Assembly (NCBI GenBank): GCA_964407105.1
Contig: CAYOUG010000003.1
Location: forward strand, 8,393-72,392
Direction of reading: 5' to 3'
From: an uncultured Candidatus Saccharibacteria bacterium
GTDB taxonomy: Bacteria > Patescibacteriota > Minisyncoccia > Phycocordibacterales > CALRHW01
DNA length: 64,000 bases
A program made the position numbers and the translations under genes. Every line of letters starts with the position of its first letter. The first letter of the stretch is position 1. Below are positions 21,114 through 53,700 of the stretch, piece by piece. The notes below the pieces were generated by a model, which saw only the letters and a list, made by a program, of their open reading frames with translations, did no database searches and was not told where the DNA came from.

Positions 21114-22637
21114 ATGGCTAAAAAACTACATATTGTACACATTGCATCTGAGGTTGAACCTTTTTCTAAAAGTGGCGGTCTAGCAAATGTTACCAGCTCA
21201 TTACCTCGTGCGCACAGAGAACTTGGGCACAACGTCATTGTTATCACCCCATATTATGAAGAACTCACAAAAAGTGACGGTCACACACTTGAAATAATTG
21301 CTGAAAACGAACAAATAAAAATAAGTGAAGGTAAATTTTTTAATGCTACCTTTTTAAAAAGCACTCTTCCTTATAGTGATGTGGTGGTATATTTTATAGC
21401 AAGCAAAGATTTTTTTGGTCCACGAGAAAAACTCTACGGTGCAACAAATGAAAATGCTCGTTTTTTCTTTTTTGATGTCGCCGCACTTACATTGCTCAAA
21501 AAAATAGAATGGAAACCCGACCTAATACATTGTCACGATTGGCACTCTGGTCTTATTCCTTATTTTTTAAAAAATAGATATAAAAAAGATGAATTTTGGA
21601 AAAATACCGCAACCCTATTTACAATTCATAATCTTGCATTTCAATTAGGTCATGATTGGTGGAATATTAAAGAAGAAGATCGCGATGATGGACGCTCAAA
21701 ACTTCCACATTTTGATGATGTAAACGGAGTTGAAAAAATAAATTTTGCAAAAAGGGCGATTTTGCATGCCGATGCCATAAACGCTGTTTCTGAAACATAC
21801 CGTGAAGAAATCATGACGGCTGATTTTGGACAAGAGTTACACCGTATATTAAAAAATCGAGAAAATATTTTTTTTGGTATCGTCAACGGAATAAACTATG
21901 ACGACTACAATCCCCTTACCGACCCCGGTCTTCAAAAACACTATAGCGACAAATCTGCACATCTCAAAAAAAATAATAAAAAATATCTTCAAAAATATTG
22001 TGAATTAGAACAAAATGACGATGTTCCTCTTTTGTGTATGACTTCACGTATTACCGAACAAAAAGGGTTTAAATTGCTAATTCAAATTTCGCGCACACTT
22101 TTACGTCTTGATATGCAAATAATTATTATGGGTGATGGTGAGTCCGCCCTACAAGAATCTCTTATTAAAATACAGAAGGAATTTCCAAAACGTTTTGTGC
22201 TCATAACACCCATGGACCATAAAATAGAAACTTCTCTTTATGCTGGATCAGATGTTTTTTTATTACCATCACGTTTTGAACCTTGTGGTCTAAATCAAAT
22301 GATAGCTTTGCGTTATGGTTGTATTCCTGTGGTACATCATATCGGCGGACTAGCAGATACAATTGTTGATTTTGATATAAGTACACAAGAAGGAAATGGT
22401 TTTACATTTACTCGTTATGACGCGGATCATTTTTTTGTAGCTATTATTCGTGCTATAGAAATCTATAAACATAAAGAATTATGGCACAACCTTGTGGTGA
22501 AAAGTCTCCAACAAGCAAACTCTTGGATTATTCCAGCAAAAAAATATGTGGATCTTTATAAAAAAACAATGCTTCTTAAAAAACGCTACGACCGTATAAA
22601 CAAAAACGGTAATGGCAACGGTAACAATCATTCATAA
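21114..22637 (+). CDS. glgA: Glycogen/starch synthase (GT5).
   Basis: The N-terminal motif EVEPFSKSGGLANV is present. The length (507 aa) and overall architecture fit GlgA. The protein ends in a low-complexity NGNGNGNN tail. Confidence 0.9.
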   Translation: MAKKLHIVHIASEVEPFSKSGGLANVTSSLPRAHRELGHNVIVITPYYEELTKSDGHTLEIIAENEQIKISEGKFFNATFLKSTLPYSDVVVYFIASKDFFGPREKLYGATNENARFFFFDVAALTLLKKIEWKPDLIHCHDWHSGLIPYFLKNRYKKDEFWKNTATLFTIHNLAFQLGHDWWNIKEEDRDDGRSKLPHFDDVNGVEKINFAKRAILHADAINAVSETYREEIMTADFGQELHRILKNRENIFFGIVNGINYDDYNPLTDPGLQKHYSDKSAHLKKNNKKYLQKYCELEQNDDVPLLCMTSRITEQKGFKLLIQISRTLLRLDMQIIIMGDGESALQESLIKIQKEFPKRFVLITPMDHKIETSLYAGSDVFLLPSRFEPCGLNQMIALRYGCIPVVHHIGGLADTIVDFDISTQEGNGFTFTRYDADHFFVAIIRAIEIYKHKELWHNLVVKSLQQANSWIIPAKKYVDLYKKTMLLKKRYDRINKNGNGNGNNHS

Positions 22638-22644
22638 AACTTTT

Positions 22645-23817
22645 ATGCTTAAATGGATTAATGTTCTTCATATATATCAACCCCCAACTCAAACAAAAGA
22701 TATAATAGATACTGTGGTACATCAAAGTTATTCACGTATTATTTCTCTTCTCGAAACATATCCCAAACTTAAACTTACACTAAATATTCCCGGATCACTT
22801 TTAGAACTTCTTGATCGCAACGGGCACAAAAAAATAATTGATGATATCGGCCGATTTGCAAAAGATGGTCGCATAGAGCTGTTGGGCACAGCAATGTATC
22901 ATCCCATTTTACCACTCATTCCTCCACAAGAAGTAGTGAGACAAATTGAACTTCACACAAATACCAGTAAAAAATATTTTTCTGACGTATACAATCCGCG
23001 AGGTTTTTATCTTCCCGAGATGGCTTATAGCAACGAAGTTGGTTTAATAATAAAAAAAGCTGGTTTTGATTGGGTATTACTTGATGAAATTCATGCTAAT
23101 GGAGAAAAAATTGATACTCTTACAAAAAATATAAGCGAAGAAACTGGTCTAATAGCAGTATTTAGAAATAGAGCCATGTCACAAACATTTCCTCCGGAAC
23201 AAATTTTTATAGTGTGGGACAACATTAAAAATAACACCCTAATTACTGTCCATGATGGTGAAATGTATGGCCATAGACACGAAGATGATCATGGTTTTTA
23301 TAAAAAAGCTTTTGAAAATCCAGAAATTCAGATGCAAACCGTATCAGAATATCTTTCAACACTCACAAACACACAAAAAATATCTTTGATAAACGCAAGC
23401 TGGGAAAGTACAACAGAAGAACTTTTACAAAACATACCTTTTGCGGTGTGGGATTCACCAGATAATAAAATTCACAAACAATTGTGGCATCTAGCAAACA
23501 CAGTGCTACAACTAGTTCCAAAACATTCTAAAGATCCACATTTCAAAGAGGCACAAACAAATTTAGACAAAGGTATCGCCAGCTGTTATTGGTGGTGGGC
23601 CAGCGAACGTAAACTCGGCGTTTTTTCTCCTACATCTTGGAATCCTAGTGAAATAGAAAAGGGTGCAACATTTCTTCTTGATGCTAGTAGAGCACTTTCC
23701 AAACTACCAAAAGAAAAACACGAAGAAATAGAAAAAATTTTTTCAGAACTTCGTGATGCGGTATGGAAAAGACATTGGGAAATAATGGGCAGTGATAACA
23801 CCCAACATTTAAATTAA
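22645..23817 (+). CDS. Glycoside hydrolase family 57 protein (alpha-glucan branching or amylase-like). The six-frame ORF starts at 22612.
   Basis: GH57-type N-terminus INVLHIYQPP plus the conserved ...GTAMYHPILPL segment. Confidence 0.65.
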   Translation: MLKWINVLHIYQPPTQTKDIIDTVVHQSYSRIISLLETYPKLKLTLNIPGSLLELLDRNGHKKIIDDIGRFAKDGRIELLGTAMYHPILPLIPPQEVVRQIELHTNTSKKYFSDVYNPRGFYLPEMAYSNEVGLIIKKAGFDWVLLDEIHANGEKIDTLTKNISEETGLIAVFRNRAMSQTFPPEQIFIVWDNIKNNTLITVHDGEMYGHRHEDDHGFYKKAFENPEIQMQTVSEYLSTLTNTQKISLINASWESTTEELLQNIPFAVWDSPDNKIHKQLWHLANTVLQLVPKHSKDPHFKEAQTNLDKGIASCYWWWASERKLGVFSPTSWNPSEIEKGATFLLDASRALSKLPKEKHEEIEKIFSELRDAVWKRHWEIMGSDNTQHLN

Positions 23818-23822
23818 ATTAT

Positions 23823-24893
23823 ATGCGCATTGCTCAAGTCGTTTCTCTCTGTGAAAGTATTCCTCCACATTCTCGTAACGGACTTGAATTTGTGGTGTCT
23901 TGGCTTACCGAAGAACTTGTAAAAAGAGGTCATGAAGTAACACTTTTCACCACAGCAGATTCTAAAACTTCTGCGCGCAAAGTATCTTTACTACCAAAAA
24001 GTATTAATGATTTTCACCAAATCCATTGGGAACAACCATTTTTTAGCATATGGAATACAATAATCGCCGGCACGAAAGCACACGATTTTGATATTATTCA
24101 CTGCCACAACGACAACGGCTCACTTATTGCGCCGTTTGTTGATATTCCAATTATTGAAACAATACATCATCCATACAATGATGATTTACGTTTAAAATAT
24201 TTAACCAATAGCGAATATCGCAAGTGTATTAAACCAATTATGGAAGAATATAAAAAAGTACACTATGTAACCGTGAGCGAAAAACAAAGAAAATTTTTCA
24301 AAATATGTGAACCGTATTATTTTAAAAAACACAGCACAATACACAACGGCATTCCTGTAAAAAAGTTTTCATTTAATCCAAAACCAAAAGATTACTTGCT
24401 TTTTATTGGTTATATAAATGAAGAAAAGGGTGCGGATATTGCTATACAAGTAGCGCGTAAAGCTGGTAAAAAATTAATCATCGCTGGACACAACAGAGGA
24501 ACAGAACTTTTTTTTAAAGAAAAAATTAAGCCGTTTTTAAACGATGATATAAAATATATTGGCCCTGTAGATTTTGCACAAAAAAATGAACTTTACAGAA
24601 ATGCACTCGCCACCCTTGCGCCACTGCGTTGGCACGAACCCTTTGGACTTACACTAATAGAATCGCAAGCTTGTGGAACACCGGTTATTGCCTTTGATCG
24701 TGGGGCTACACGCGAAGTTATTAATCACAAAAAAACTGGTTTTATTGTGAAAAATGAGAAAGAGATGGTCGCCGCTATCAAACTTATTCACAAAATAAAC
24801 AGAAAAGATTGTAGAGATTGGGTTGAAAAAAATTTTAGTGTAGAAAAAATGACAGATGAATACGAAAAACTTTATAGTACAATAAAGAGGTAA
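23823..24893 (+). CDS. Glycosyltransferase family 4 (GT-B, retaining), likely an alpha-glucan or trehalose-type synthase.
   Basis: The C-terminal GT4 signature EPFGLTLIESQACGTPVIAFDRGATREVI (E-x7-E) is present. Confidence 0.8.
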   Translation: MRIAQVVSLCESIPPHSRNGLEFVVSWLTEELVKRGHEVTLFTTADSKTSARKVSLLPKSINDFHQIHWEQPFFSIWNTIIAGTKAHDFDIIHCHNDNGSLIAPFVDIPIIETIHHPYNDDLRLKYLTNSEYRKCIKPIMEEYKKVHYVTVSEKQRKFFKICEPYYFKKHSTIHNGIPVKKFSFNPKPKDYLLFIGYINEEKGADIAIQVARKAGKKLIIAGHNRGTELFFKEKIKPFLNDDIKYIGPVDFAQKNELYRNALATLAPLRWHEPFGLTLIESQACGTPVIAFDRGATREVINHKKTGFIVKNEKEMVAAIKLIHKINRKDCRDWVEKNFSVEKMTDEYEKLYSTIKR

Positions 24894-26527
24894 TGTTTTT
24901 ATCTTTATTTAAAAAACAATCCAACACCTCCGATATACCATCTTCTGCGTGGTATCGCAATGCAGTGGTATATCAAATATATCCAAGAAGTTTTCAAGAC
25001 TCAAACGGCGACGGTGTGGGTGATCTGCGCGGTATTATAAAACGTCTTCCCTATCTTGAATCTTTGGGTATTGGCGCTGTGTGGATTTCACCTATTTACA
25101 CATCACCGATGAAAGATTTCGGTTATGATATTTCTAACTTTTATAATATCGATCCACTTTTTGGAACACTTGCAGATTTTGATGAACTTGTTGTAGAAAT
25201 GCACAAACGTGGCATAAAAATAATTATGGATTTAGTGATCAATCACACCTCCTCAGAACATCCATGGTTTAAAGAGTCGTGTTCGTCTCTAGAAAACCCA
25301 AAACGTGATTGGTATATATGGCAAGATCCACAAAAAGACGGATCACCACCAAATAATTGGTTAAGTGTTTCTGGCGGCTCGGCATGGACATTTGATGAAA
25401 AAACCAATCAATACTATCTTCATCACTTTCTAAAAGAACAACCCGATCTAAACTGGCGCAACACAGATGTAAAAGATGAAATAAGACGTATTGCTGAGTT
25501 TTGGATTGCACGCGGTGTAGATGGTTTTCGTGTTGATGCAATGAGTCATCTTGTGGAAGATGGACTTTTTAGAGATGATCCAAAAAATACTGAATTTATT
25601 TTAAATAAAAATAATCAGTACAACAAATACATACACACGTTTAGCACCAATCGTCCCCAACTTGAAAATGTGATTAAATTTCTCTGTGAAAGTATAAATT
25701 CATATCCAAACAAATTTATAGTTTTTGAAACATATCTTCCTCTTACTGATACTCTTGCCATATACAACATGCATCCAGATGAGCATCACGCTCCGTTTAA
25801 TTTTAATTTTTTCAATCTTGAGTGGGGTGCAAAAACCTATAAAGATTTTGTTGATAATTTTAATAATGCCCTATCCTTAAAACAAATACCGACTTATGTT
25901 TTTGGCAATCACGATCAACCACGACTTGTTTCTAGGTTTGGTGAGGGACAAGCCAGACTATGCGCAATGCTTTTACTTACATTACGCGGTTTACCATTTA
26001 TATATTATGGTGAAGAAATCGGTATGAAAAATGTAGATATTCCAAAAGAAAAAATAAAAGATGGGTTTGCACACGATTCTGTGAATATTGGTTTGAGTCG
26101 TGATCCAGCACGTACACCAATGCAGTGGGATAATTCGTCTTACGCTGGTTTTTCTACAAACGAACCGTGGCTTCCTATATCACCTGAATACGAAAAAATA
26201 AATGTGTCAGCAGAAACATCCGACCCAAAATCTATATTTAATTTATATTGCTCACTTATCGGTTATCGAAATAAATCAGATATTTTAAAACATGGATCTT
26301 ATAAATCAATAAATACTAATAATAACGATGTTTTTGGTTATATCCGCTCATACAAGAAAAAAGAAATCCTTATATTGCTTAATTTTTCAAATACTTCACA
26401 AATAATTTCTATAAAAGAAAGTGGTATTGTGATATTTTCAACACACCTCGACACACCACCAAACACACCAGTCGCCAACACAATAGAGATGCGACCGTTT
26501 GAGGGTTATGTTATTGAATTACAGTAA
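24893..26527 (+). CDS. GH13 alpha-amylase-family enzyme, resembling oligo-1,6-glucosidase or trehalose synthase.
   Basis: GH13 regions are present: YQIYPRSFQDSNGDGVGDLRG, DLVINHTS, GVDGFRVDA, YYGEEIGM, FGNHDQPR. Its ATG overlaps the upstream stop (TAATG). Confidence 0.9.
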   Translation: MFLSLFKKQSNTSDIPSSAWYRNAVVYQIYPRSFQDSNGDGVGDLRGIIKRLPYLESLGIGAVWISPIYTSPMKDFGYDISNFYNIDPLFGTLADFDELVVEMHKRGIKIIMDLVINHTSSEHPWFKESCSSLENPKRDWYIWQDPQKDGSPPNNWLSVSGGSAWTFDEKTNQYYLHHFLKEQPDLNWRNTDVKDEIRRIAEFWIARGVDGFRVDAMSHLVEDGLFRDDPKNTEFILNKNNQYNKYIHTFSTNRPQLENVIKFLCESINSYPNKFIVFETYLPLTDTLAIYNMHPDEHHAPFNFNFFNLEWGAKTYKDFVDNFNNALSLKQIPTYVFGNHDQPRLVSRFGEGQARLCAMLLLTLRGLPFIYYGEEIGMKNVDIPKEKIKDGFAHDSVNIGLSRDPARTPMQWDNSSYAGFSTNEPWLPISPEYEKINVSAETSDPKSIFNLYCSLIGYRNKSDILKHGSYKSINTNNNDVFGYIRSYKKKEILILLNFSNTSQIISIKESGIVIFSTHLDTPPNTPVANTIEMRPFEGYVIELQ

Positions 26528-39059: not shown

Positions 39060-40781
39060 TTAATTTGATATACCGAGATATTCTGGCGAATTTATTTTCA
39101 TCCAATCAAGGAGTTGACGCATCACATAAGTGGCACCGAGCTGATTTGTACGAGCACCTTTTTCAAGAATAATAGCGAAAGAATATTTAGGATTATCATA
39201 AGGAAAAAAACCGGTTACCCAAGAATTAACGAGAAGTTTTGAAACACCGAGCTCAGCAGTACCAGTCTTTGCCGCCACCGCCACATAAGGCAAATTAAGT
39301 GCTCCTGCGGTCACAGTAAAAACCGCTTCACGCATTCCCTCTTGTACTATTTTAAAATACCCATCATCTATCGTAACCTCTCTTACTGAGGTTTTTGTGG
39401 GATGTGTTTTTTTGTCTAAAATTGTTGGTGTGAGCAATGTTCCTTTATTTGCAATCGCCGCAACACTGCGCGCCTCCTGAATGGGTGTGAGTTGAAAACC
39501 ATATTGACCGATAGATGTGTGGTATGTATCTCCAAGTCTCCAATCATCACCGTCAAACACTTTTTTCTTCCACTCTGGATTTGGAATAATTCCTTCTATT
39601 TCATTTGGCACATCGATACCAGTTTTTTCACCCAAGCCCATCATTCGTACATATTTTTCAATGTTTGTAATACCAAGACCTTTTTGATTTTCAAAACCCC
39701 CTCCGATAGTGTAAAAATATACGTCTGAAGAAAGTGCGAGCGCCTCCCGCATATCCACCCAACCGTGTGCCTTCCAATCTTTAAAAACAGTCTTTTGTGT
39801 TGGGTCATACGGATTAACAAGCTCGAGTGCACCAGTACTTAAAATCTTTTTTTGTGGGTCAATAATTTTTTCAACCAATGCGCCAAGCGCTATAAATGGT
39901 TTAACAATAGAACCGGGTGTATACAAACCAGAAACCGCTCGGTTTAAAAATGGATTATTTGTATCTTTTTGGTATCCCGCAATAATCGCCGAATCTTTTC
40001 CTTGTGTCATAACATTAGAGCTGTATTCTGGAAAACTTGTAAGCGCAAGAATTTCACCTGTGTGTACATCCATTATTACTCCAGCACCACCACGAAAACC
40101 ATATTCTTCAGATGCGTGTTGTATAGCACGATAAAGTTCTTGTTGCACATTAGAATCGATAGACAGCGTAACATTTTTTCCATCAACGGGCGGCTCCACA
40201 ACATTTTGAGATTTTAATTCTCCAAGAGCATTTGTTTCAACTATTCTCACACCATTTTTACCAGAAAGAATATCGTTAAATGTTTTTTCTGCTCCATCTT
40301 TTCCAACATATTCTGTACGATAATAAAAACCAGAATTATCTTTGTCCGGATATTTTAAATAACCAACTATATGTGAGATACCTTGTATTGAAGCAAAAGA
40401 ACGTAATGCAAAATCAGGTTCATCTGGGTTAATAGTATTAAAAGCGAGCTCTACACCATTTCTATCATAAATAATTCCTCGATTTGAAAAAATTGATGTG
40501 TGTTGAAGACGATTATTTTCACTTTGTTCAGCAAAAGCTTCACCACGATGAACCTGAAGAACCCAAATACGCGATAAAAATAAAATGGCAACCAGCATAA
40601 AACATGATCCCAACAACACCATAGTTTTTTTTGATATGGGTTTTTCAAGACGACCCTCAAATTGATAAACATCAAACTGCGGTAAATTACGTGCATCAAT
40701 AAAGATCTCATCTGGGTATATTTCAGAATCAGAGTAAGAACGTCTATGCCTAAATAATTTTATAAATTTTCTCCAAGACAT
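39060..40781 (-). CDS. mrdA: Penicillin-binding protein 2, the elongasome transpeptidase.
   Basis: An N-terminal transmembrane segment and the motifs SxxK (GSIVKPF) and KTG (AAKTGTAE). It lies immediately downstream of mreBCD. Confidence 0.85.
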   Translation of the reverse strand: MSWRKFIKLFRHRRSYSDSEIYPDEIFIDARNLPQFDVYQFEGRLEKPISKKTMVLLGSCFMLVAILFLSRIWVLQVHRGEAFAEQSENNRLQHTSIFSNRGIIYDRNGVELAFNTINPDEPDFALRSFASIQGISHIVGYLKYPDKDNSGFYYRTEYVGKDGAEKTFNDILSGKNGVRIVETNALGELKSQNVVEPPVDGKNVTLSIDSNVQQELYRAIQHASEEYGFRGGAGVIMDVHTGEILALTSFPEYSSNVMTQGKDSAIIAGYQKDTNNPFLNRAVSGLYTPGSIVKPFIALGALVEKIIDPQKKILSTGALELVNPYDPTQKTVFKDWKAHGWVDMREALALSSDVYFYTIGGGFENQKGLGITNIEKYVRMMGLGEKTGIDVPNEIEGIIPNPEWKKKVFDGDDWRLGDTYHTSIGQYGFQLTPIQEARSVAAIANKGTLLTPTILDKKTHPTKTSVREVTIDDGYFKIVQEGMREAVFTVTAGALNLPYVAVAAKTGTAELGVSKLLVNSWVTGFFPYDNPKYSFAIILEKGARTNQLGATYVMRQLLDWMKINSPEYLGISN

Positions 40782-41046: not shown

Positions 41047-41844
41047 TTATTTTAAAATTGAAACCAAACGAAGTTCGCCTATGTGTACGGGTGTTTTACA
41101 AAATATTCTTTTAAAAGAATCCGTAGGTACTGATTCGATCGCTTCTACTATAGCCAAAATGTGTGGTACAATGCCCGGCAATATAATTTTATCTCCCTCT
41201 ATAACATCAACATCTTGAGGTACACGTATTTCAAAATTTCCACCCCCAGTACCAACAAGTTCAACCGACAAACTATTTCTATCAACAAGTGCGTCTGTGT
41301 GAGTATCAACGCTTGAAAAAAGCTTAGCTCTAGATGTTTTTTCAAACACCTGATCAATTACACCCAAAACAACTGTATCACTTGCAAACACCATATTACC
41401 AATCGTAACAGCCGAATCCAACCCCACATCAAGTATAAATGTGTCATACGCTGAGTGTGGTGGGCGCACAAGTACGGCAGAAAGTATTGCGGAAATATTT
41501 GTATTACGACCCCAAGATTGTTTAAATTCTTTATTTTCTTGCTCAACCACCGACTGTGCCAATAATTTAATACGAATATCCACCAATTCTTGTTCAAGTG
41601 CCTTATTTTTTTCAACAAGTTTTATGCGCGATAAAAAAAATCCACGAATTGCGCTTGTGTGCTCCATAATAAAATTACCAGAAACCCACAGCGGTCTTCC
41701 TATACCCTGAGACATTTTTGGAAAAAATAATGGCGAAAAAACAGTAAAACATACCACAACAAAAATAACCACACCGATTACTAAAAACGGCATCAAATGT
41801 TTTTTACCTTTTCTATTATTTTGAAGTGGGAAGTTCATCTTCAT
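41047..41844 (-). CDS. mreC: Rod shape-determining protein MreC.
   Basis: An N-terminal transmembrane segment, a coiled coil (LEQELVDIRIKLLAQ) and the beta-rich MreC core, in operon context. Confidence 0.8.
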   Translation of the reverse strand: MKMNFPLQNNRKGKKHLMPFLVIGVVIFVVVCFTVFSPLFFPKMSQGIGRPLWVSGNFIMEHTSAIRGFFLSRIKLVEKNKALEQELVDIRIKLLAQSVVEQENKEFKQSWGRNTNISAILSAVLVRPPHSAYDTFILDVGLDSAVTIGNMVFASDTVVLGVIDQVFEKTSRAKLFSSVDTHTDALVDRNSLSVELVGTGGGNFEIRVPQDVDVIEGDKIILPGIVPHILAIVEAIESVPTDSFKRIFCKTPVHIGELRLVSILK

Positions 41845-42892
41845 GAATAATAAGTACCTCTTTAAAACCCTCCAAGTCTTCTAAAATCATACCTGTACCA
41901 CGAGCTACAGCAGTAAGAGGATCTTCCGCAATATATACAGGAATTTTAATATATTCATGAAGCAAAGCATCAAGACCCTTTATAAGTGCACCTCCACCGG
42001 TCAAATAAAGACCTCGATGCATTACGTCAGCAAGAATTTCTGGAGGGGTCGTTTCAAGAACTTCGCGCACCGATTCTACAAGTGTGTCTATAGACTGTGA
42101 AATAGCTTCGCGAATATCTGCATCAGTAATTACAACCTCTTTTGGAAGACCAGTAATAAGATCTCGTCCTTTAATAATTGCCTCCATAGGTACATCCCCA
42201 GGAATTACCGAACCAATCGCGATTTTTACACTCTCTGCGGTTTTTTCACCAATTAAAATTTTAAATTCACTACGAATATAAGAAATTATATCGCTATTAA
42301 GTTTGTCTCCTGCGATTCGCAAATTTTTTGAACACACCACACCCCCAAGAGAAATGACAGCGATGTCTGAGGTGCCTCCACCGATATCTAAAACCATACT
42401 TCCCACCGGATCCATCACCGGCAAACGAATACCAATAGCCGCCGCCACTGGCTCCTCTACAATATGCACCTCGCGAGCGCCAGCATTTTTTGTAGCATCA
42501 CGCACTGCACGTATTTCAACACTTGTAATACCAGACGGCACTCCCACCACAACGCGAGGACCAAAAAAAGTTCGGGTGTCTTTTTGCGCTTGATTTAATA
42601 AATACGCGATCATTTCTTCGGTTATTTCAAAATCAGAAATAACACCGTCAACTAAGGGACGCACCGCTACAATATGTCCAGGCGTACGACCAAGCATTTG
42701 TTTTGCTTGATTGCCTATCGCCACAACACGCCCAGTTTTTTGATTAACCGCAACCACAGATGGTTCATTGAGCACGACACCTCTACCCTTCATATAAACA
42801 AGAGTATTTGCCGTACCCAAATCAATTCCAATATCGTTGGAAAAGAGTGTATAGAATCTTTCTATCTTTTTTTTCAGTCGTGACAGCCACAT
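41816..42892 (-). CDS. mreB: Rod shape-determining protein MreB (actin-like ATPase).
   Basis: The phosphate-1 motif GIDLGTANTLVY and other actin-fold motifs are present. Confidence 0.9.
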   Translation of the reverse strand: MWLSRLKKKIERFYTLFSNDIGIDLGTANTLVYMKGRGVVLNEPSVVAVNQKTGRVVAIGNQAKQMLGRTPGHIVAVRPLVDGVISDFEITEEMIAYLLNQAQKDTRTFFGPRVVVGVPSGITSVEIRAVRDATKNAGAREVHIVEEPVAAAIGIRLPVMDPVGSMVLDIGGGTSDIAVISLGGVVCSKNLRIAGDKLNSDIISYIRSEFKILIGEKTAESVKIAIGSVIPGDVPMEAIIKGRDLITGLPKEVVITDADIREAISQSIDTLVESVREVLETTPPEILADVMHRGLYLTGGGALIKGLDALLHEYIKIPVYIAEDPLTAVARGTGMILEDLEGFKEVLIIHEDELPTSK

Positions 42893-48372: not shown

Positions 48373-49386
48373 TTACCTTTTTGCAATAATAGTCTTTTTG
48401 TAAACGTCCAAATGTTCAAGAGCAATTCCAGTACCTTTTGCTACACAAAAAAGAGCGTCATCGGCAAGTTTTGCCTTCACACCCGTGCGACGATAAATAA
48501 GGTCTGGTAAATTGCGAAGCTGAGAAGATCCACCCGTCATAATAATGCCGTTGTCGATAATATCTGAGGCAAGCTCTGGTGGAGTATCCTGAAACACATC
48601 TTTAATTGCTTTTACAATTTCCCGAAGCTCTTTGTTTATTGCTTTTACAATTTCGTTTGTTTTAATTTCAATAGAACGAGGAAGGCCGGTGACGAAGTCA
48701 CGACCCTTAATAGTAACTGAGAGTTCCTCATCAAGCGGAATCGCTGAACCCACTTTTATTTTTATATCCTCAGCGGTTTTATCTCCAATACCAAGATTAA
48801 ATTGTTTTTTAATATAATCAGTAATCGCATAATCAATTTTATTGCCAGCGCATTTTACAGAAGTAGCTGCCACAATTCCGCCAAGAGAAATTACTGCCAC
48901 GTCTGTAGTACCACCACCAATATCTACAACCATATGCCCGAGTGCTTCTTGAATAGAAATGCCAGCACCAATAGCTGCGAGAATTGGTTCTTTCACCACG
49001 TACGCATTTTTTGCACCAGCACGTATCGCGGCCTCCACCACCGCACGACGCTCAGTAGATGTCACACCAGCAGGTACAGACACAAGCACTTCGGGTTTAA
49101 TAAGATTCCACTTTCCAAGCGCTTTGTTTATATAGTATCGAAGCATCGCTTCGGTTACGCGATAATCTGCAATCACCCCGTCTTTCATAGGACGATATGC
49201 AATGATGTTGTCTGGAGTGCGACCGATCATTGCTTTTGCTTCCAAACCAATCGCCATAATTTTATTGTCTTCCTCAGACACCGCCACCACAGACGGCTCG
49301 TTTAGCACAATTCCCTTACCCGGCACAAATACGAGCGTGCTTGTGGTGCCCAAATCAATTCCAAGTTTTTTTGAAAAAAATGCCAT
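48373..49386 (-). CDS. Second MreB/Mbl-family actin-like protein, a stand-alone paralogue.
   Basis: GIDLGTTSTLVFV and a full actin-fold motif set are present, in a 337-aa ORF. It is not linked to mreC or mreD. Confidence 0.85.
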   Translation of the reverse strand: MAFFSKKLGIDLGTTSTLVFVPGKGIVLNEPSVVAVSEEDNKIMAIGLEAKAMIGRTPDNIIAYRPMKDGVIADYRVTEAMLRYYINKALGKWNLIKPEVLVSVPAGVTSTERRAVVEAAIRAGAKNAYVVKEPILAAIGAGISIQEALGHMVVDIGGGTTDVAVISLGGIVAATSVKCAGNKIDYAITDYIKKQFNLGIGDKTAEDIKIKVGSAIPLDEELSVTIKGRDFVTGLPRSIEIKTNEIVKAINKELREIVKAIKDVFQDTPPELASDIIDNGIIMTGGSSQLRNLPDLIYRRTGVKAKLADDALFCVAKGTGIALEHLDVYKKTIIAKR

Positions 49387-49434
49387 AGTGATGGCACTAT
49401 CATAAGGGTTTTAATGGAGTTTTACAAATATATA

Positions 49435-49468
49435 GAAAAGAAAAAGCCGCACCTTTTTAAAGCGCGGC
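49435..49468 (-). terminator. Intrinsic terminator for the G+C-rich islet gene (GCCGCGC...GTGCGGC followed by TTTTTCTTTTC on the minus strand).
   Basis: A 6/7-bp G+C stem with a T-rich tail on the minus strand, 30 nt after the stop at 49498. Confidence 0.5.
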
Positions 49469-49497
49469 AAAATGAGTACGGAAACCAGTGTCAGTAG

Positions 49498-50022
49498 TCA
49501 GAGTAAACGACGGTTTGAGAAGTCTGTTCCTTCGTAACGCTCGAGAGAAACTTCTTCGGCATCATGAAGCCTTCTCCTGGACACATCGATATATCTCAAG
49601 GGCCCATCGACCAAATAAGTCCACATGGCAAGATAGCCACATCTCTCAATCACGAAGGTGCTCAGAGGAGAGCCATCAGTGGGAAACCAAACATTGCCTT
49701 GAGGCAAACTGTTTTGGATTTGTCGACAAAGAACTTTTCCAGAGAATGGTGCGACAATCCCATGCCTGTTGCCATCAAGCACATACTGACCGTGAATATC
49801 AGTCCAAACCTCTTTCACAAAACAACCACCAATTTCCCAGAAGAAACTCCTCGCCTTACGATCAGACTTAACAGTAAGATCTATGAAATCGATTCGTTTT
49901 CCAAGAACAATCTCGATAACTCGACGAGACGCCTCAATAGCAGCAGTTGCAGACGACACAATTTCAACTTTCGGCATTTCTATCTCCTGTCTCAGGAAAT
50001 CATGAGGAACAATTTCACTCAT
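49498..50022 (-). CDS. Orphan hypothetical protein on a G+C-rich islet. The start was chosen at MSEIVPHD; the six-frame ORF extends to 50079 and is partly G+C-poor.
   Basis: It is G+C-rich, starting at about 174 aa and open for 193 codons. A consensus promoter (TTGACA-N17-TATTAT) places the transcription start near 50044, and a GGTGG lies just upstream of the ATG at 50022. I see no recognisable domain. Confidence 0.5.
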   Translation of the reverse strand: MSEIVPHDFLRQEIEMPKVEIVSSATAAIEASRRVIEIVLGKRIDFIDLTVKSDRKARSFFWEIGGCFVKEVWTDIHGQYVLDGNRHGIVAPFSGKVLCRQIQNSLPQGNVWFPTDGSPLSTFVIERCGYLAMWTYLVDGPLRYIDVSRRRLHDAEEVSLERYEGTDFSNRRLL

Positions 50023-50050
50023 GGCCACCGTCACAGTGGCATTAAAAATA

Positions 50051-50079
50051 ATAATACAGTATAAAATTATATTTGTCAA
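50051..50079 (-). promoter_or_regulatory. Near-consensus sigma-70 promoter on the minus strand, TTGACA-N17-TATTAT with TG adjacent.
   Basis: The minus strand reads TTGACAaatataattttatacTGTATTAT. It drives the islet ORF 49498..50022. Confidence 0.5.
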
Positions 50080-50087
50080 AATTAGAA

Positions 50088-50196
50088 AATCTCAAAACCA
50101 TGTTGAGAAAAGCATCGCGCAGGGGCGACGGCCCCGAGCGTAGCAGCAATCGCAACAGCGATTGACGCGTGGTTTTCGAAACACGGTTTTGAGATT
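50088..50196. repeat. A 15-bp imperfect inverted repeat (AATCTCAAAACCATG / CACGGTTTTGAGATT, one mismatch) bracketing a 79-nt G+C-rich segment between two divergent promoters.
   Basis: The arms are at 50088-50102 and 50182-50196. The interior contains GGGGC-GACG-GCCCC and ATCGC-AACA-GCGAT hairpins. It could be a MITE-like element or an operator for the adjacent XRE-HTH protein. Confidence 0.45.
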
Positions 50197-50203
50197 GACA
50201 ACA

Positions 50204-50231
50204 TTGAACAACATAGCACATATGCTATACT
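50204..50231 (+). promoter_or_regulatory. Promoter TTGAAC-N16-TATACT placed 6 nt upstream of the HTH-murA ATG, implying a leaderless mRNA.
   Basis: The plus strand reads TTGAAC-aacatagcacatatgc-TATACT-ttcctc-ATG. An additional TTGACA lies at 50195-50200. Confidence 0.4.
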
Positions 50232-50237
50232 TTCCTC

Positions 50238-51749
50238 ATGTCTACATCATCAAACCCACTCGCCAAACTTATTGCCAATCTTCGTGAGGAAAGAGGAATT
50301 ACTCAAGAACAATTTGCCAAAAAACTTGGCACCACACAAAGCGCCATTGCTCGCATTGAAAAAGGAGAGCAAAACCTTACCACCGAAATGATCGCAAAGA
50401 TTAGTGAAGCGCTCAATCATGATATTGTTCAACTTTCTACTGGAGCTATAAACATAGAAATAGAGGGTGGCAAAAAACTATCTGGAGAAATTATTACAAA
50501 AACTTCAAAAAATGGCGCAATGGGAATTCTTTGTGCTTCCCTTCTAAATAAAAACACCACCCTCATAAAAAATGTTCCAAAAATAGAAGAGGTGCATCGT
50601 ATGATAGAAGTACTACAAAGTATTGGTGTACATGTATTATGGCGAGGTAATGATTTAGAAATCGCACCCCCAGAAAAACTTTCACTTGAAAAAATCGACA
50701 TTGCTGCTGCAGAAAAAACCCGAAGCATTATCATGCTTATTGGGCCACTCATTCACCTCCTCTCTTCATTTTCACTACCCCAGCCGGGTGGATGCAAACT
50801 CGGCTCACGCACAGTACGCCCACATTTTTTTGCCCTTGAAAAACTTGGTGTAAAAATAAAAACAACATCAGAACACTACGAAGTAAAAGTACCAAAACTT
50901 AAAGCAAACGAAATTGTACTTTACGAAAGTGGAGACACGGTAACAGAAAACGTACTTATGGCAGCGGCGCGCATAGACGGTGTGACCACCATTAAATTTG
51001 CTTCAGCCAATTACATGGGGCAAGAGCTTTGTTTTTTTCTTGAAAAACTTGGCGTAAAAGTAGAAGGTATAGGCACCACAACACTTGTCGTGCATGGAAA
51101 AAAAGATATCGATGTGCCGGTTACATATTATTTAAGTGAAGATCCTATCGAATCAATGTTTTTCATTACGGTAGCTATTGTTACCAATTCTTCTATTACC
51201 ATCAAACGTTGCCCTATCGACTTTTTAGAAATCGAACTTTTGAAGCTTGAAAAAATGGGATTTAAATATAAAATTTTAAAAAAATACAAAGCAGAAAATG
51301 GTCATACAAATCTTGTAGATATAAAAACAGCGCCTTCAAAACTCACAGCACTCGAAGAAAAAATAGAATGCCGACCATACCCCGGTCTAAATATAGACAA
51401 CCTTCCTTTTTTTGCAGTTATTGCAACCCAAACAAAAGGTACCACATTTATTCATGATTGGGTTTATGAAAAACGTGCGGTGCACTACAAAGAACTCGAC
51501 AAACTTGGAGCTGATACACTTCTTGCCGATCCACACCGCATGTATATCACCGGTCCCACCAAACTTAAGCCAGCAGAAGTGATATGTCCACCCGCCCTTC
51601 GTCCTGCCGCAATCATTCTTATAGGCATGCTTGGTGCTCAAGGTCGTTCGGTTTTACGCAATATTTACAGTATTAATCGAGGTTATGAAGATATTATTGT
51701 GCGTCTAAATAGTATTGGTGCAAAAATAAAAATATTGCGAGAGTTGTAA
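50238..51749 (+). CDS. murA: Fusion protein made of an N-terminal XRE-family helix-turn-helix domain joined to UDP-N-acetylglucosamine 1-carboxyvinyltransferase (MurA).
   Basis: Residues about 1-70 are LIANLREERGITQEQFAKKLGTTQSAIARIEKGEQNLTTEMIAKISEALN (HTH_XRE). Residues about 75-503 are a full-length EPSP-synthase-fold MurA (…KLSGEIITKTSKNGAMGILCASLL…GGCKLGSRTVRPHFFALEKLGVK…). Confidence 0.8.
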   Translation: MSTSSNPLAKLIANLREERGITQEQFAKKLGTTQSAIARIEKGEQNLTTEMIAKISEALNHDIVQLSTGAINIEIEGGKKLSGEIITKTSKNGAMGILCASLLNKNTTLIKNVPKIEEVHRMIEVLQSIGVHVLWRGNDLEIAPPEKLSLEKIDIAAAEKTRSIIMLIGPLIHLLSSFSLPQPGGCKLGSRTVRPHFFALEKLGVKIKTTSEHYEVKVPKLKANEIVLYESGDTVTENVLMAAARIDGVTTIKFASANYMGQELCFFLEKLGVKVEGIGTTTLVVHGKKDIDVPVTYYLSEDPIESMFFITVAIVTNSSITIKRCPIDFLEIELLKLEKMGFKYKILKKYKAENGHTNLVDIKTAPSKLTALEEKIECRPYPGLNIDNLPFFAVIATQTKGTTFIHDWVYEKRAVHYKELDKLGADTLLADPHRMYITGPTKLKPAEVICPPALRPAAIILIGMLGAQGRSVLRNIYSINRGYEDIIVRLNSIGAKIKILREL

Positions 51750-51762
51750 GTAACCATTAGTA

Positions 51763-53700
51763 TTGAGGATAATGAAAGTCGTCCATGTAATTCCAATTTC
51801 CAAAGGCATTCTCTCAGAACGTTTGTCATATTTTACTTCTCAAGACGTACCGCTTGGAAGTACGGTTTCTGTTCCTTTGCGCAAAAAAATTGTGCACGCA
51901 ATAGTTGTTGAAAAAGAAGATGTGAGTGATATAAAATCAAACTTAAAATCTTCGACTTTCGCCTTACGAAAAATGGAGAATGTAGAAAGTCATGAACTTT
52001 TAAGTGAAGAGTTTATTGAGAGCGTAAAAGAAACCGCTGATTATTACGCTTCTTCCACGGGTAGTTTGCTTCACACACTTGTTCCAAAAATTCTTCTTTC
52101 AAATTTAAATAGTATTAAAAATTTAAGTAACGATAAGAAAGAAAATATAGAAAAAGGGGGCGCGAGCGAAGCGAGCGCCGAACAACTCGTATTACAAGCA
52201 GACGATGAAGAACGTTTTGCAAATTACAAAAGTCTAATTCGAGAAGAATTTGCTCAACACACATCTGTGTTTGTTTGTGTACCCACAATAGAAGATGTAA
52301 AAAAAGCACAAACTGCACTTGAAAAAGGTATCGAAAAATACACCTATACATTTCACAGCGGTCTCACAAAAAAAGAGTTTATTGAATCTTGGAACAAACT
52401 TTTCGAAGAAACACACCCCGTACTTATTGTTGCCACAGGACAATATATTTGCATACCACGTAAAGATGTAAAAACAATTATTGTTGAGCGTGAAGGTTCG
52501 CGCGCATACAAAACACCCGCTAAACCATTTATAGATATTCGTACATTTGTTGGTATTTATGCAAAAAAAACACATGCCAAGCTTTTACTTGGCGACATGC
52601 TTTTACGTGCCGAAACAATTTGGAAACTAAAAAACGATGAGTTTGTAGAATTTTCACCACTTAAATTTAGATCGGTTACAAGCGCTGAGCAAATAATTGT
52701 CGATACAAGAAAAAGTGACAAAGAAGACGATCAAAAAAACAAATCATTCACAGTATTATCTGAAGAAATAAAAAAACTTATAGAGTGGAACAAAGAACGC
52801 AGTGAAAATTTATTTATTTTTTGTGTACGCAAAGGACTTGCACCACTCACAATATGTGGTGATTGTGGAATGGTCGCTACGTGTAGTGTGTGTAGTGCTC
52901 CTGTGGTACTACATGGTGGTGCAAACGCTGAGGAGGAGAGATATTTTGAATGTCATACGTGTGGCAAAAGACGAAGCACAAAGGAACTCTGTAAAAATTG
53001 TCAGAGCTGGAAACTCACCACACTTGGTGTTGGTATTGAACTTATTGAACATGAAATAAAAGCTCTTTTTCCTGGGGTTAAAGTATTTCGTCTCGACACA
53101 CAAATAGCAACCACGCATAAAAAAGCAACCGACATTGTAAATAAATTTTATAATACACCCGGAAGTGTTTTACTTGGCACCGAAATGGCCCTTTTGTATT
53201 TAAATAAATCAATTGAAAACACGGCGGTAGCCTCAATCGATTCCCTATTTTCTCTTCCAGACTTTCGTGTTGGAGAAAAAATTCTTTCAATCTTATTAAA
53301 AATCCGTTCCATTGCAAAAGAAAATTTTGTACTTCAAACACGCAATCCTGAAGAAAAAATTTTTGATTATGCAATAAAAGGCAACCTCGCTGATTTTTAT
53401 CGCGATGAAATAGAGGAAAGAAAAGCGTTTGGTTATCCCCCATTTTCAGTGTTTATAAAAATCACCCTACAAGGAGAAGAAAAAACCGTCGAAACAGAAA
53501 TGAAAAGAGTGGCAGCTCTTTGTGCACCATACGAAACAGATATTTTTACGGCACTTACATCACGTATAAAAAATAAACATGTCATGCACGCTCTAATAAA
53601 AATACCACGCGAAGATTGGGTAGATCAAAAACTTTTAGCAACACTTCGCAAATTACCACCACAATATATGATAAAGGTTGATCCAGAGAGTATTTTGTAG
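51763..53700 (+). CDS. priA: Primosomal protein N' (PriA)-like, with an intact Cys-rich zinc-binding region but degenerate Walker A and B motifs.
   Basis: There is an N-terminal 3'-DNA-binding-like region. The CxxC clusters are CGDCGMVATCSVCSAPV...CHTCGKRRSTKELCKNCQ. Where DEEH is expected the sequence reads IIVEREGSRAYK, and no GxGKT P-loop is evident. The gene is followed by def-fmt as in canonical priA operons. Confidence 0.7.
   Translation: MRIMKVVHVIPISKGILSERLSYFTSQDVPLGSTVSVPLRKKIVHAIVVEKEDVSDIKSNLKSSTFALRKMENVESHELLSEEFIESVKETADYYASSTGSLLHTLVPKILLSNLNSIKNLSNDKKENIEKGGASEASAEQLVLQADDEERFANYKSLIREEFAQHTSVFVCVPTIEDVKKAQTALEKGIEKYTYTFHSGLTKKEFIESWNKLFEETHPVLIVATGQYICIPRKDVKTIIVEREGSRAYKTPAKPFIDIRTFVGIYAKKTHAKLLLGDMLLRAETIWKLKNDEFVEFSPLKFRSVTSAEQIIVDTRKSDKEDDQKNKSFTVLSEEIKKLIEWNKERSENLFIFCVRKGLAPLTICGDCGMVATCSVCSAPVVLHGGANAEEERYFECHTCGKRRSTKELCKNCQSWKLTTLGVGIELIEHEIKALFPGVKVFRLDTQIATTHKKATDIVNKFYNTPGSVLLGTEMALLYLNKSIENTAVASIDSLFSLPDFRVGEKILSILLKIRSIAKENFVLQTRNPEEKIFDYAIKGNLADFYRDEIEERKAFGYPPFSVFIKITLQGEEKTVETEMKRVAALCAPYETDIFTALTSRIKNKHVMHALIKIPREDWVDQKLLATLRKLPPQYMIKVDPESIL

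Follow-up and report, generated by a model that had tools for sequence, protein, structure and literature searches.

An XRE-type helix-turn-helix domain fused to MurA and a candidate operator at the promoter of the fused gene

Trigger enzymes such as BirA, PutA, NadR and RbkR join an N-terminal DNA-binding domain to an enzyme domain of their own pathway and have an operator at their own or the pathway's promoter (PMC5397151). Regulators of the XRE family are typically autoregulatory dimers on palindromes (PMC12565409), and the one-component members, among them 434 repressor/Cro and XRE-cupin proteins such as PsdR, carry an N-terminal Cro/C1-type helix-turn-helix (HTH) domain and have half-sites one helical turn apart (PMC12565409, PMC10965056). 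Here we describe a gene, designated HTH-murA, that lies in a 64-kb stretch of contig CAYOUG010000003.1 (the window, in which positions count from the first letter) and encodes an XRE-type HTH domain fused in frame to a complete MurA, together with a perfect palindrome that overlaps the putative promoter of the same gene. The reading that we favor, with a probability of roughly 0.7, is that an active MurA represses its own, probably leaderless, promoter via the palindrome over the -10 element, as a trigger enzyme comparable to BirA, PutA and RbkR.

HTH-MurA resembles the described trigger enzymes in the order of its domains and in the position of its candidate operator; the known examples, however, have winged-helix or ribbon-helix-helix domains, whereas HTH-MurA combines an XRE domain with an enolpyruvyl transferase (EPT) of the cell-wall pathway, and the ligand switching that is proven for BirA and PutA is one that we infer for HTH-MurA. 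With the XRE one-component regulators it would have in common autoregulation, a palindromic operator and, in its C-terminal domain, a possible metabolite sensor, but where those proteins have a small sensor or dimerisation domain, HTH-MurA has an apparently competent enzyme of about 430 amino acids. RodZ, a protein of cell-wall morphogenesis that is linked to MreB both genomically and functionally, likewise begins with an XRE-type HTH. RodZ also contains a transmembrane segment along with a periplasmic domain, and the partner of its HTH is MreB and not DNA; unlike RodZ, HTH-MurA has no match to the HTH_25 family and no membrane segment and is accompanied by a conserved DNA palindrome. The control of flux into peptidoglycan is an active question, and the known answers are post-translational, among them feedback by UDP-N-acetylmuramic acid (UDP-MurNAc) and, in Firmicutes, the proteolysis of MurAA by ClpCP. 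In the latter, ReoM/ReoY and ClpCP degrade MurAA by regulated proteolysis that acts through separate proteins; the target that HTH-MurA has in common with this system is the level of the first committed enzyme of peptidoglycan synthesis, for which a built-in transcriptional self-repression is proposed here. The kind of enzyme-repressor is already known, and its MurA variant is undescribed.

A fused homologue with HTH_3 and EPSP_synthase domains, 54–57% identical over its full length, occurs in Streptomyces and appears to be MurA2 (SCO5998 / sven5810 / vnz_28735). Both the architecture and the aconitase neighbor fit this presumed identity, the fused gene lying near aconitase and SCO5998 being a neighbor of acnA/SCO5999 (PMC12161575). 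The Streptomyces protein shares the signature PPALRPA with the window protein, and its gene has the palindrome at an equal distance from a probably leaderless start. MurA2 is described as one of a pair of such transferases in S. coelicolor (PMC12161575). The sporulation heterodimer BldM-WhiI targets murA2 directly (PMC4125116, PMC11005364), and a SigB-dependent promoter is known for SCO5998 (PMC8346170). Streptomyces MurA2 is a second paralogue regulated by development and stress, whereas the window gene is found among the housekeeping genes mreB, priA, def and fmt, and the operators differ as well (ATCTCA/TGAGAT in Streptomyces, ATAGCA/TGCTAT in the window). No mention of an HTH or of autoregulation of Streptomyces MurA2 was found in published work, where the protein is treated as a plain MurA.

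The fused protein and its distribution

The fused gene and its parts lie in the window as follows.

50238..51749, plus strand: HTH-murA coding sequence, 503 amino acids and stop (open reading frame list; Pfam HTH_3 and EPSP_synthase; NCBIfam MurA subfamily)
50256..50411, plus strand: XRE/Cro-C1 HTH domain, amino acids 7–58 (Pfam HTH_3, AlphaFold2 helices, invariant columns)
50412..50450, plus strand: flexible linker, amino acids 59–71 (low AlphaFold2 confidence, low conservation)
50451..51746, plus strand: complete MurA (enolpyruvyl transferase) domain, amino acids 72–503 (NF006873, matches in the PDB, Foldseek)
50793..50795, plus strand: codon TGC of the catalytic Cys186 in the loop PGGCKLGSR (alignment to 5ujs)

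The reading frame starts at 50238, the first possible start codon after the upstream stop, and contains no internal stops. Its N-terminal part matches Pfam HTH_3 at amino acids 12–60 with 61 bits against a cut-off of 23 (E = 1.1e-16) and likewise passes the cut-offs of HTH_19 and HTH_31; the recognition helix lies within the motif TTQSAIARIEKGEQNLT at amino acids 32–48. The remainder is covered almost end to end by EPSP_synthase (amino acids 76–487, 169 bits, model positions 2–414 of 417) and by the NCBIfam MurA subfamily NF006873, in which amino acids 72–500 correspond to model positions 3–417 of 419 with 321.4 bits against a cut-off of 297. The best sequence matches among solved structures are all MurA enzymes, with the Campylobacter jejuni protein 5ujs reaching E = 1e-54.

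The AlphaFold2 model has a mean predicted local distance difference test score (pLDDT) of 92.1. Four helices (residues 7–18, 23–30, 34–41 and 49–58; pLDDT 81–92) form a compact bundle in which helix 2, the turn and helix 3 are exposed, and from this HTH a 13-residue linker runs straight into the complete MurA fold. The linker is modeled with low confidence (pLDDT about 58 over residues 61–70 and below 50 at residues 65–67) and, after the N-terminal tail, is the least conserved segment among 32 close homologues, with a mean identity of 57% compared to 72.5% for the HTH and 75.5% for the enzyme domain. Foldseek gave TM-scores of 0.92–0.94 to solved MurA structures, and superposition on E. coli MurA (1uae) a TM-score of 0.94 with a root-mean-square deviation of 2.2 Å; none of the solved structures among the sequence or Foldseek matches covers the HTH part. 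In an alignment of 12 diverse fused proteins, 16 of the 38 invariant columns sit in the HTH, at amino acids 12–59. By these comparisons both domains are under purifying selection. We read the gene product as bifunctional: a MurA competent for catalysis, to whose N-terminus an XRE-type HTH is flexibly tethered.

The catalytic loop of the window protein, PGGCKLGSR, matches PGGCAIGQR in the alignment with C. jejuni MurA (5ujs); Cys186 corresponds to Cys115 of the E. coli enzyme and the loop Arg to Arg120. More generally, the motifs SKN, KTRS, PGGCKLGSR, NID, LRP and RGYE of the window protein align to those of solved MurAs and contain the residues for catalysis and substrate binding, which are Lys22/Asn23, Arg91, Cys115/Arg120, Asp305, Arg371 and Arg397 in E. 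coli numbering. In comparison with canonical E. coli MurA (1UAE), the window protein shares the fold, the loop Cys and these further equivalents; it differs in about 70 additional N-terminal residues that form the HTH, in an overall identity of only about 27% and in an Ala in place of Asp369. The earlier note on this DNA had asked for a check of the catalytic Cys and the flexible loop, and both are intact, by alignment and in 80 of 80 fused loci: the GGC of the loop, and with it the Cys, is kept in all of the best 80 of at least 503 loci, and the window protein has SKN, K-x-R-S, PGGC...R, N-I-D, L-R-P and RGYE, as does each of these 80. The loop has a reduced pLDDT in the model, as expected for a mobile loop. 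Scanning of the related loci revealed no second EPT gene adjoining any intact fused gene. The source organism makes peptidoglycan: the window encodes MraW, an FtsI-like penicillin-binding protein (PBP), a PBP2-like protein, a Mur ligase, two MreB proteins, VanY and a PG_binding_1 protein. Taken together, we consider it quite probable that the window protein retains MurA activity.

The fusion is real to near certainty. The same note had inferred an in-frame HTH-MurA fusion and had named an assembly error or a missed stop as what could undo it; the fusion is borne out by the reading frame, Pfam, NCBIfam, the AlphaFold2 model and the homologues, and hundreds of orthologues, together with an independent assembly, leave no room for the error. 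An identical protein is encoded in the independent Logan assembly SRR12487045. A search of 5.8 billion proteins found both domains in 120 of the 120 best matches (70–88% identity, 487–538 amino acids), an exhaustive search of representatives at 50% identity recovered full-length fused proteins down to 32% identity, and in the species-representative genomes of GTDB at least 503 loci encode a relative with the HTH motif. The best 80 of these loci match over the full length and come from Paceibacteria-type Patescibacteria, from Saccharibacteria (including Nanosynbacter) and, unexpectedly, from cultured Actinobacteria; the last group comprises about 35 Streptomyces as well as Knoellia, Actinopolymorpha and Marinitenerispora, with 54–57% identity, and the fused architecture is also found in complete genomes of cultured Streptomyces. 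The PPALRPA signature is present in nearly the whole fused clade. By this comparative evidence the fusion is ancient.

That the architecture had not been described, as the earlier note supposed, holds to the extent that no paper was found that notes the HTH: literature searches on MurA fusions, Patescibacteria and Saccharibacteria yielded no description of HTH-MurA. The architecture is, however, neither rare nor unique, being widespread (at least 503 loci) and annotated in databases as plain MurA, probable pseudo-enzymes included; attached to a named gene and yet without a functional description that we could find, it is unremarked rather than unknown. One paper followed as a lead (PMC8066302) concerns an unrelated MurA in which a Cys-to-Asp change confers fosfomycin resistance.

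A neighbor-joining tree of the enzyme domains (Kimura distance, 100 bootstrap replicates) grouped the intact fused proteins with a few unfused relatives, to the exclusion of canonical MurAs, at 83% bootstrap support. The actinobacterial genes were monophyletic (100%) and joined the Nanosynbacter-containing subclade of Saccharibacteria (100%), whereas Saccharibacteria alone were never monophyletic (0%). Because the actinobacterial genes nest inside the saccharibacterial clade, gene transfer between these epibionts and their host phylum is suggested, with the direction left unproven by a tree method as simple as this one. The nesting is seen for loci L039–L080 (Actinobacteria) relative to L016–L060 (Saccharibacteria), and in such a transfer the operator would have been carried along.

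The palindrome at the promoter

Two features occupy the region immediately upstream of the start codon.

50204..50231, plus strand: sigma-70-like promoter (promoter scan, 9/12 matches with TG extension)
50213..50228, no strand assigned: candidate operator, a perfect 16-bp palindrome ATAGCA-CATA-TGCTAT (ATAGCACATATGCTAT) with half-site centers 10 bp apart

The putative promoter consists of a -35 element TTGAAC at 50204–50209, a 16-nt spacer and an extended -10 element TGcTATACT at 50223–50231, which the palindrome overlaps. Because the -10 element ends 6 nt before the ATG and a Shine-Dalgarno sequence is absent, the HTH-murA transcript is probably leaderless. No other perfect palindrome of this form exists in the window, and the overlap of the right half-site, the -10 element and the start codon region recurs in saccharibacterial and Streptomyces loci.

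To compare relatives, the pattern AT-xy-CA-N4-TG-y'x'-AT was scored out of 10 within 60 nt upstream of the start. A perfect site is present in 48 of 84 loci (57%), compared to 0.012% of the 17,083 windows that the same DNA provided as background, and a score of at least 9 is reached by 62 loci (74%) and by 0.15% of background windows. In 54 of these 62 loci the gap between palindrome and start codon is 9–13 nt. With lineages defined as clusters at 70% protein identity, 15 of 17 have the site, and several apparent misses have it slightly further upstream. Three forms of the dyad were found.

Paceibacteria-type loci: ATAGCA-N4-TGCTAT
Saccharibacteria: ATATCA-N4-TGATAT
Streptomyces (about 71% GC): ATCTCA-N4-TGAGAT, which stands out as ATCTCATATCTGAGAT

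Among these variants (AG/CT, AT/AT and CT/AG) the inner dinucleotides change on both arms and the symmetry is kept. The operator variant seems to track the sequence of the recognition helix in the expected direction: TTQSA..A goes with the AG/CT operator in 10 of 12 loci and TSQSA proteins have it in 0 of 65, a correlation that is confounded by phylogeny.

The site was also sought where the HTH is missing. Upstream of four unfused MurAs nested in the fused clade (P0121, P0125, P0128 and P0131) the palindrome is absent, with best scores of 7–8. In one locus without the HTH (L105), the gene is 64% identical to that of the window and the divergent mreB is kept, with 70 of 82 residues identical; here the -10 half TGCTATACT persists and the left half-site has decayed to ATGCAA. 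Judged by these comparisons, palindrome and fused gene travel together through Paceibacteria-type Patescibacteria, Saccharibacteria and Actinobacteria, and loss of the HTH is accompanied by decay of the palindrome. This would be most simply explained if the binder were the gene's own product, because the site is co-inherited across phyla that do not share BldM and WhiI, and specific binding of the fused protein to the palindrome is predicted with good confidence. The comparative data, with a dyad on the -10 element conserved in three lineages, also point to the control of a leaderless promoter by its own gene product that the earlier note had considered.

In about 1 Mb of DNA from related loci there are five further perfect sites, without a discernible pattern. 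In two saccharibacterial loci a second perfect palindrome, ATATCAGCCTTGATAT, lies inside the fused gene, 142 nt past its start (L018, 6125–6140; L023, 6131–6146); this may be a secondary operator, or it may be there by chance.

Self-repression and its rivals

In the mechanism that we propose, two HTH domains, presumably in a protein dimer, would bind ATAGCA-N4-TGCTAT at 50213–50228 and thereby occlude RNA polymerase at the extended -10 element. The enzyme would in this way repress its own synthesis and probably also that of priA-def-fmt, and the open or closed state of the MurA domain, with UDP-N-acetylglucosamine (UDP-GlcNAc), phosphoenolpyruvate (PEP) or UDP-MurNAc bound, may modulate the binding to DNA.

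Several points weigh against this reading. DNA binding, repression as opposed to activation, and dimerisation are properties that we infer, and enzyme activity is predicted. MurA is generally described as a monomer, whereas a dimer is presumed here. The score on the MurA equivalog model TIGR01072 is 315 bits, short of the cut-off of 392.7, and NF009470 is missed as well (213 bits, cut-off 552); canonical unfused MurAs of other Patescibacteria show the same pattern of passes and misses on MurA models. The position of Asp369 is occupied by Ala, the sequence being PPALRPA where canonical enzymes have TDLRA. The search that found no second murA or EPT gene covered the 64-kb window. No second operator was found in the window either, matches with two mismatches being at chance level, and a wider regulon is not visible there. 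As for the comparative evidence, the pattern was defined from the same upstream regions in which it was counted, so that the enrichment figures are optimistic; many of the Streptomyces loci are close relatives; and, as the right half-site falls on an extended -10 element (TGnTATAAT), the promoter alone accounts for part of its conservation.

A set of distant relatives bears on the relation between the two domains. In the fused proteins P0129, P0130, P0143, P0149, P0156, P0191 and P0197 the Cys loop and several PEP-binding residues are lost. Five such degenerate paralogues that were scanned score 135–235 bits on MurA models, below the cut-off of 297, and in these proteins the HTH is still 51–61% identical while the enzyme domain is down to 29–40%. 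They are probably enzymatically inactive. The palindrome is kept in four of the five whose context was examined. This retention of HTH and operator by dead paralogues shows that the HTH-EPT scaffold has a function independent of catalysis. Three of the five (P0129, P0143 and P0130) are head-to-head with operons of a canonical unfused MurA and murB or a Mur ligase, each being followed by a Mur ligase or ddl; the canonical MurAs beside them have 438–452 amino acids and 311–329 bits, compared to 321 for the window protein. Of the remaining two, P0191 is located after murB-relA and P0149 after a NUDIX hydrolase and a nucleotidyl-transferase. Three of these loci are laid out as follows.

L081, 8598–11477: degenerate-paralogue locus, site in the short region common to the divergent murA-murB operon
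L084, 3768–6740: degenerate-paralogue locus, with the same arrangement
L087, 95–5003: degenerate-paralogue locus, site 9 nt upstream of the fused gene, divergent operon with a Mur ligase and murA

The head-to-head layout looks like that of a pathway regulator, in other words of an enzyme turned regulator, and the pairs of HTH-pseudo-MurA and canonical MurA mirror the split of roles between BirA and BplA in Francisella (PMC4462617).

A different kind of loss was observed in P0124 (529 amino acids), in which the HTH is 24% identical and without the TSQSA..RIE motif; its enzyme domain is 50% identical and keeps the loop Cys (PSGC for PGGC). This lineage may be losing the regulatory function.

The pairs of HTH-pseudo-MurA and canonical MurA speak for the first rival explanation, according to which the protein is primarily a transcription factor whose MurA-like domain serves as a ligand sensor while a separate, canonical MurA does the catalysis. 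Such a split is what is seen in the other Patescibacteria with an HTH-pseudo-MurA beside a canonical MurA of 438–452 amino acids, Streptomyces SCO5998 is one of two such transferases (PMC12161575), and the window protein misses the TIGR01072 cut-off and is without Asp369. Sensor-type paralogues, however, lose the catalytic and PEP-binding motifs quickly, whereas all of them are kept in the window protein and in the 80 intact loci; no second EPT gene was found beside intact fused genes or in the window; and the adjacent canonical MurAs score no better on the MurA model than the window protein does. We regard a mere sensor role as unlikely.

According to a second explanation, the HTH is a protein-protein module that docks MurA on MreB filaments in the manner of RodZ and does not bind DNA. 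The fused gene of the Paceibacteria-type lineage has an mreB paralogue as its conserved head-to-head neighbor. RodZ binds MreB through an XRE-type HTH, and Streptomyces MreB acts in spore-wall synthesis. A sporulation role of the Streptomyces gene would agree with docking, murA2 being a sporulation-stage target of BldM-WhiI (PMC4125116). Against this, a positioned, co-varying palindrome that vanishes together with the HTH would be expected of a DNA-binding domain and not of a docking domain, Pfam gave no match to the RodZ-type HTH_25 at E ≤ 0.01, and Saccharibacteria and Streptomyces keep HTH and palindrome without adjacency to mreB. Docking in place of DNA binding seems improbable to us, and the two are not mutually exclusive.

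The third explanation, which we hold to be about as improbable, takes the palindrome for ordinary promoter architecture or for the site of some other regulator, with an HTH that acts elsewhere or is inert. The overlap of the right half with the extended -10 element speaks for it, as do the BldM-WhiI control, the SigB-dependent promoter and a predicted DmdR1 site nearby at Streptomyces murA2 (PMC4125116, PMC8346170, PMC12161575). A promoter element alone, however, does not account for a left half that mirrors the right as its reverse complement and changes together with it, nor another regulator for a site that moves with the gene between phyla without common regulators and is lost with the HTH, and an inert HTH would not stay 51–61% identical while the enzyme domain falls to 29–40%. 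Alternatively, the HTH may do no more than tether MurA to DNA; the presence of a specific, positioned operator argues for gene regulation. A sequencing, assembly or gene-calling artefact that joined two adjacent genes can be dismissed as having next to no probability, for there is no stop or frameshift, the independent assembly and the hundreds of orthologues refute it and no points in its favor were found.

Returning to self-repression by an active MurA, the further step by which ligands would control DNA binding is tentative, and we rate it at somewhat less than an even chance. A still broader proposal, in which HTH-MurA is at once a metabolite-responsive trigger enzyme and a mobile gene-operator cassette, is speculative, and we hold it to be rather less likely than not. 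If it were true, the MurA domain would close upon binding UDP-MurNAc as feedback ligand or UDP-GlcNAc with PEP, and this closure would alter how two HTHs engage the palindrome; transcription of murA would be set directly by the pool of peptidoglycan precursors, with a control that may extend to the divergent mreB in compact Paceibacteria-type loci and to mur and ddl operons in other Patescibacteria. The cassette would have moved between Saccharibacteria and the actinobacterial host lineage, to become there the sporulation-stage MurA2, while in certain Patescibacteria its evolution would have led to a pseudo-enzyme that does nothing but regulate genes for cell-wall precursors. The dead paralogues beside canonical murA-murB show stages in the change of an enzyme into a regulator. 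If MurA reads its own promoter, this would be a novel and highly economical control of flux, and among the few specific transcriptional circuits proposed for Patescibacteria, with their small genomes and few regulators. The hypothesis is testable in the tractable Streptomyces, because a homologous protein, apparently MurA2, and its operator are present there.

Neighbors of the gene in the window

The fused gene is flanked on both sides by the features listed below, and a second mreB lies further away.

48373..49386, minus strand: mreB paralogue, the divergent neighbor (Pfam MreB_Mbl, 440 bits)
41816–42892, minus strand: second MreB paralogue, adjoining a PBP2-like gene at 39060–40781
49387..50203, no strand assigned: lineage-specific insertion of about 0.8 kb that splits the region between mreB and HTH-murA (comparison with relatives)
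49498–50022, minus strand: ORF174, 174 amino acids, 44.6% GC compared to 36.9% for the window
50085–50200, no strand assigned: structured element of 116 nt, 51.7% GC, folding energy -57.6 kcal/mol, z = -8.9
51763..53700, plus strand: priA-like gene (Pfam PriA_3primeBD), 13 nt past the HTH-murA stop

Downstream, 13 related loci have priA next after the fused gene, and in the window no terminator-like site was found between HTH-murA and priA; the two are probably co-transcribed, and the autoregulated promoter may also drive priA, def and fmt. Upstream, the two MreB paralogues of the window are 44% identical. In compact relatives (L001, L002, L003, L007, L009, L012, L013 and L088) the start codons of mreB and the fused gene are 84–130 nt apart with the operator between them, the palindrome being 58–82 nt from the mreB start, and co-regulation of mreB via the operator is possible in these genomes.

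The insertion that separates the two genes in the window is found only in the source organism, including its second assembly (L083), and is absent from other relatives. Its ORF174 matched no Pfam or PHROG family and has no relatives beyond the other assembly of the same organism. The structured element, with inverted-repeat arms at 50073–50114 and 50170–50211, is placed between two divergent promoters, its end 2 nt short of the operator; it consists of a long stem with two internal hairpins, its minus strand is similarly stable, and the 12-mer of the outer stem is present only in its two arms. Rfam gave nothing at gathering level, the hits to RtT (16 bits) and mir-5729 being at chance level, and no relatives of the element were found in related loci. 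Thirteen metagenome matches to a 20-nt core were 20–25 nt long, came from unrelated contigs of 51–71% GC and were set aside as chance. The element could be a small RNA gene, the remnant of a mobile element or a DNA cruciform.

At a distance from the fused gene, the window also contains a glycogen/starch cluster of four genes on the plus strand (21114–26527), which encode a GT5 starch-synthase-like protein, a GH57 protein, a GT1-family glycosyltransferase and a protein of the alpha-amylase family.

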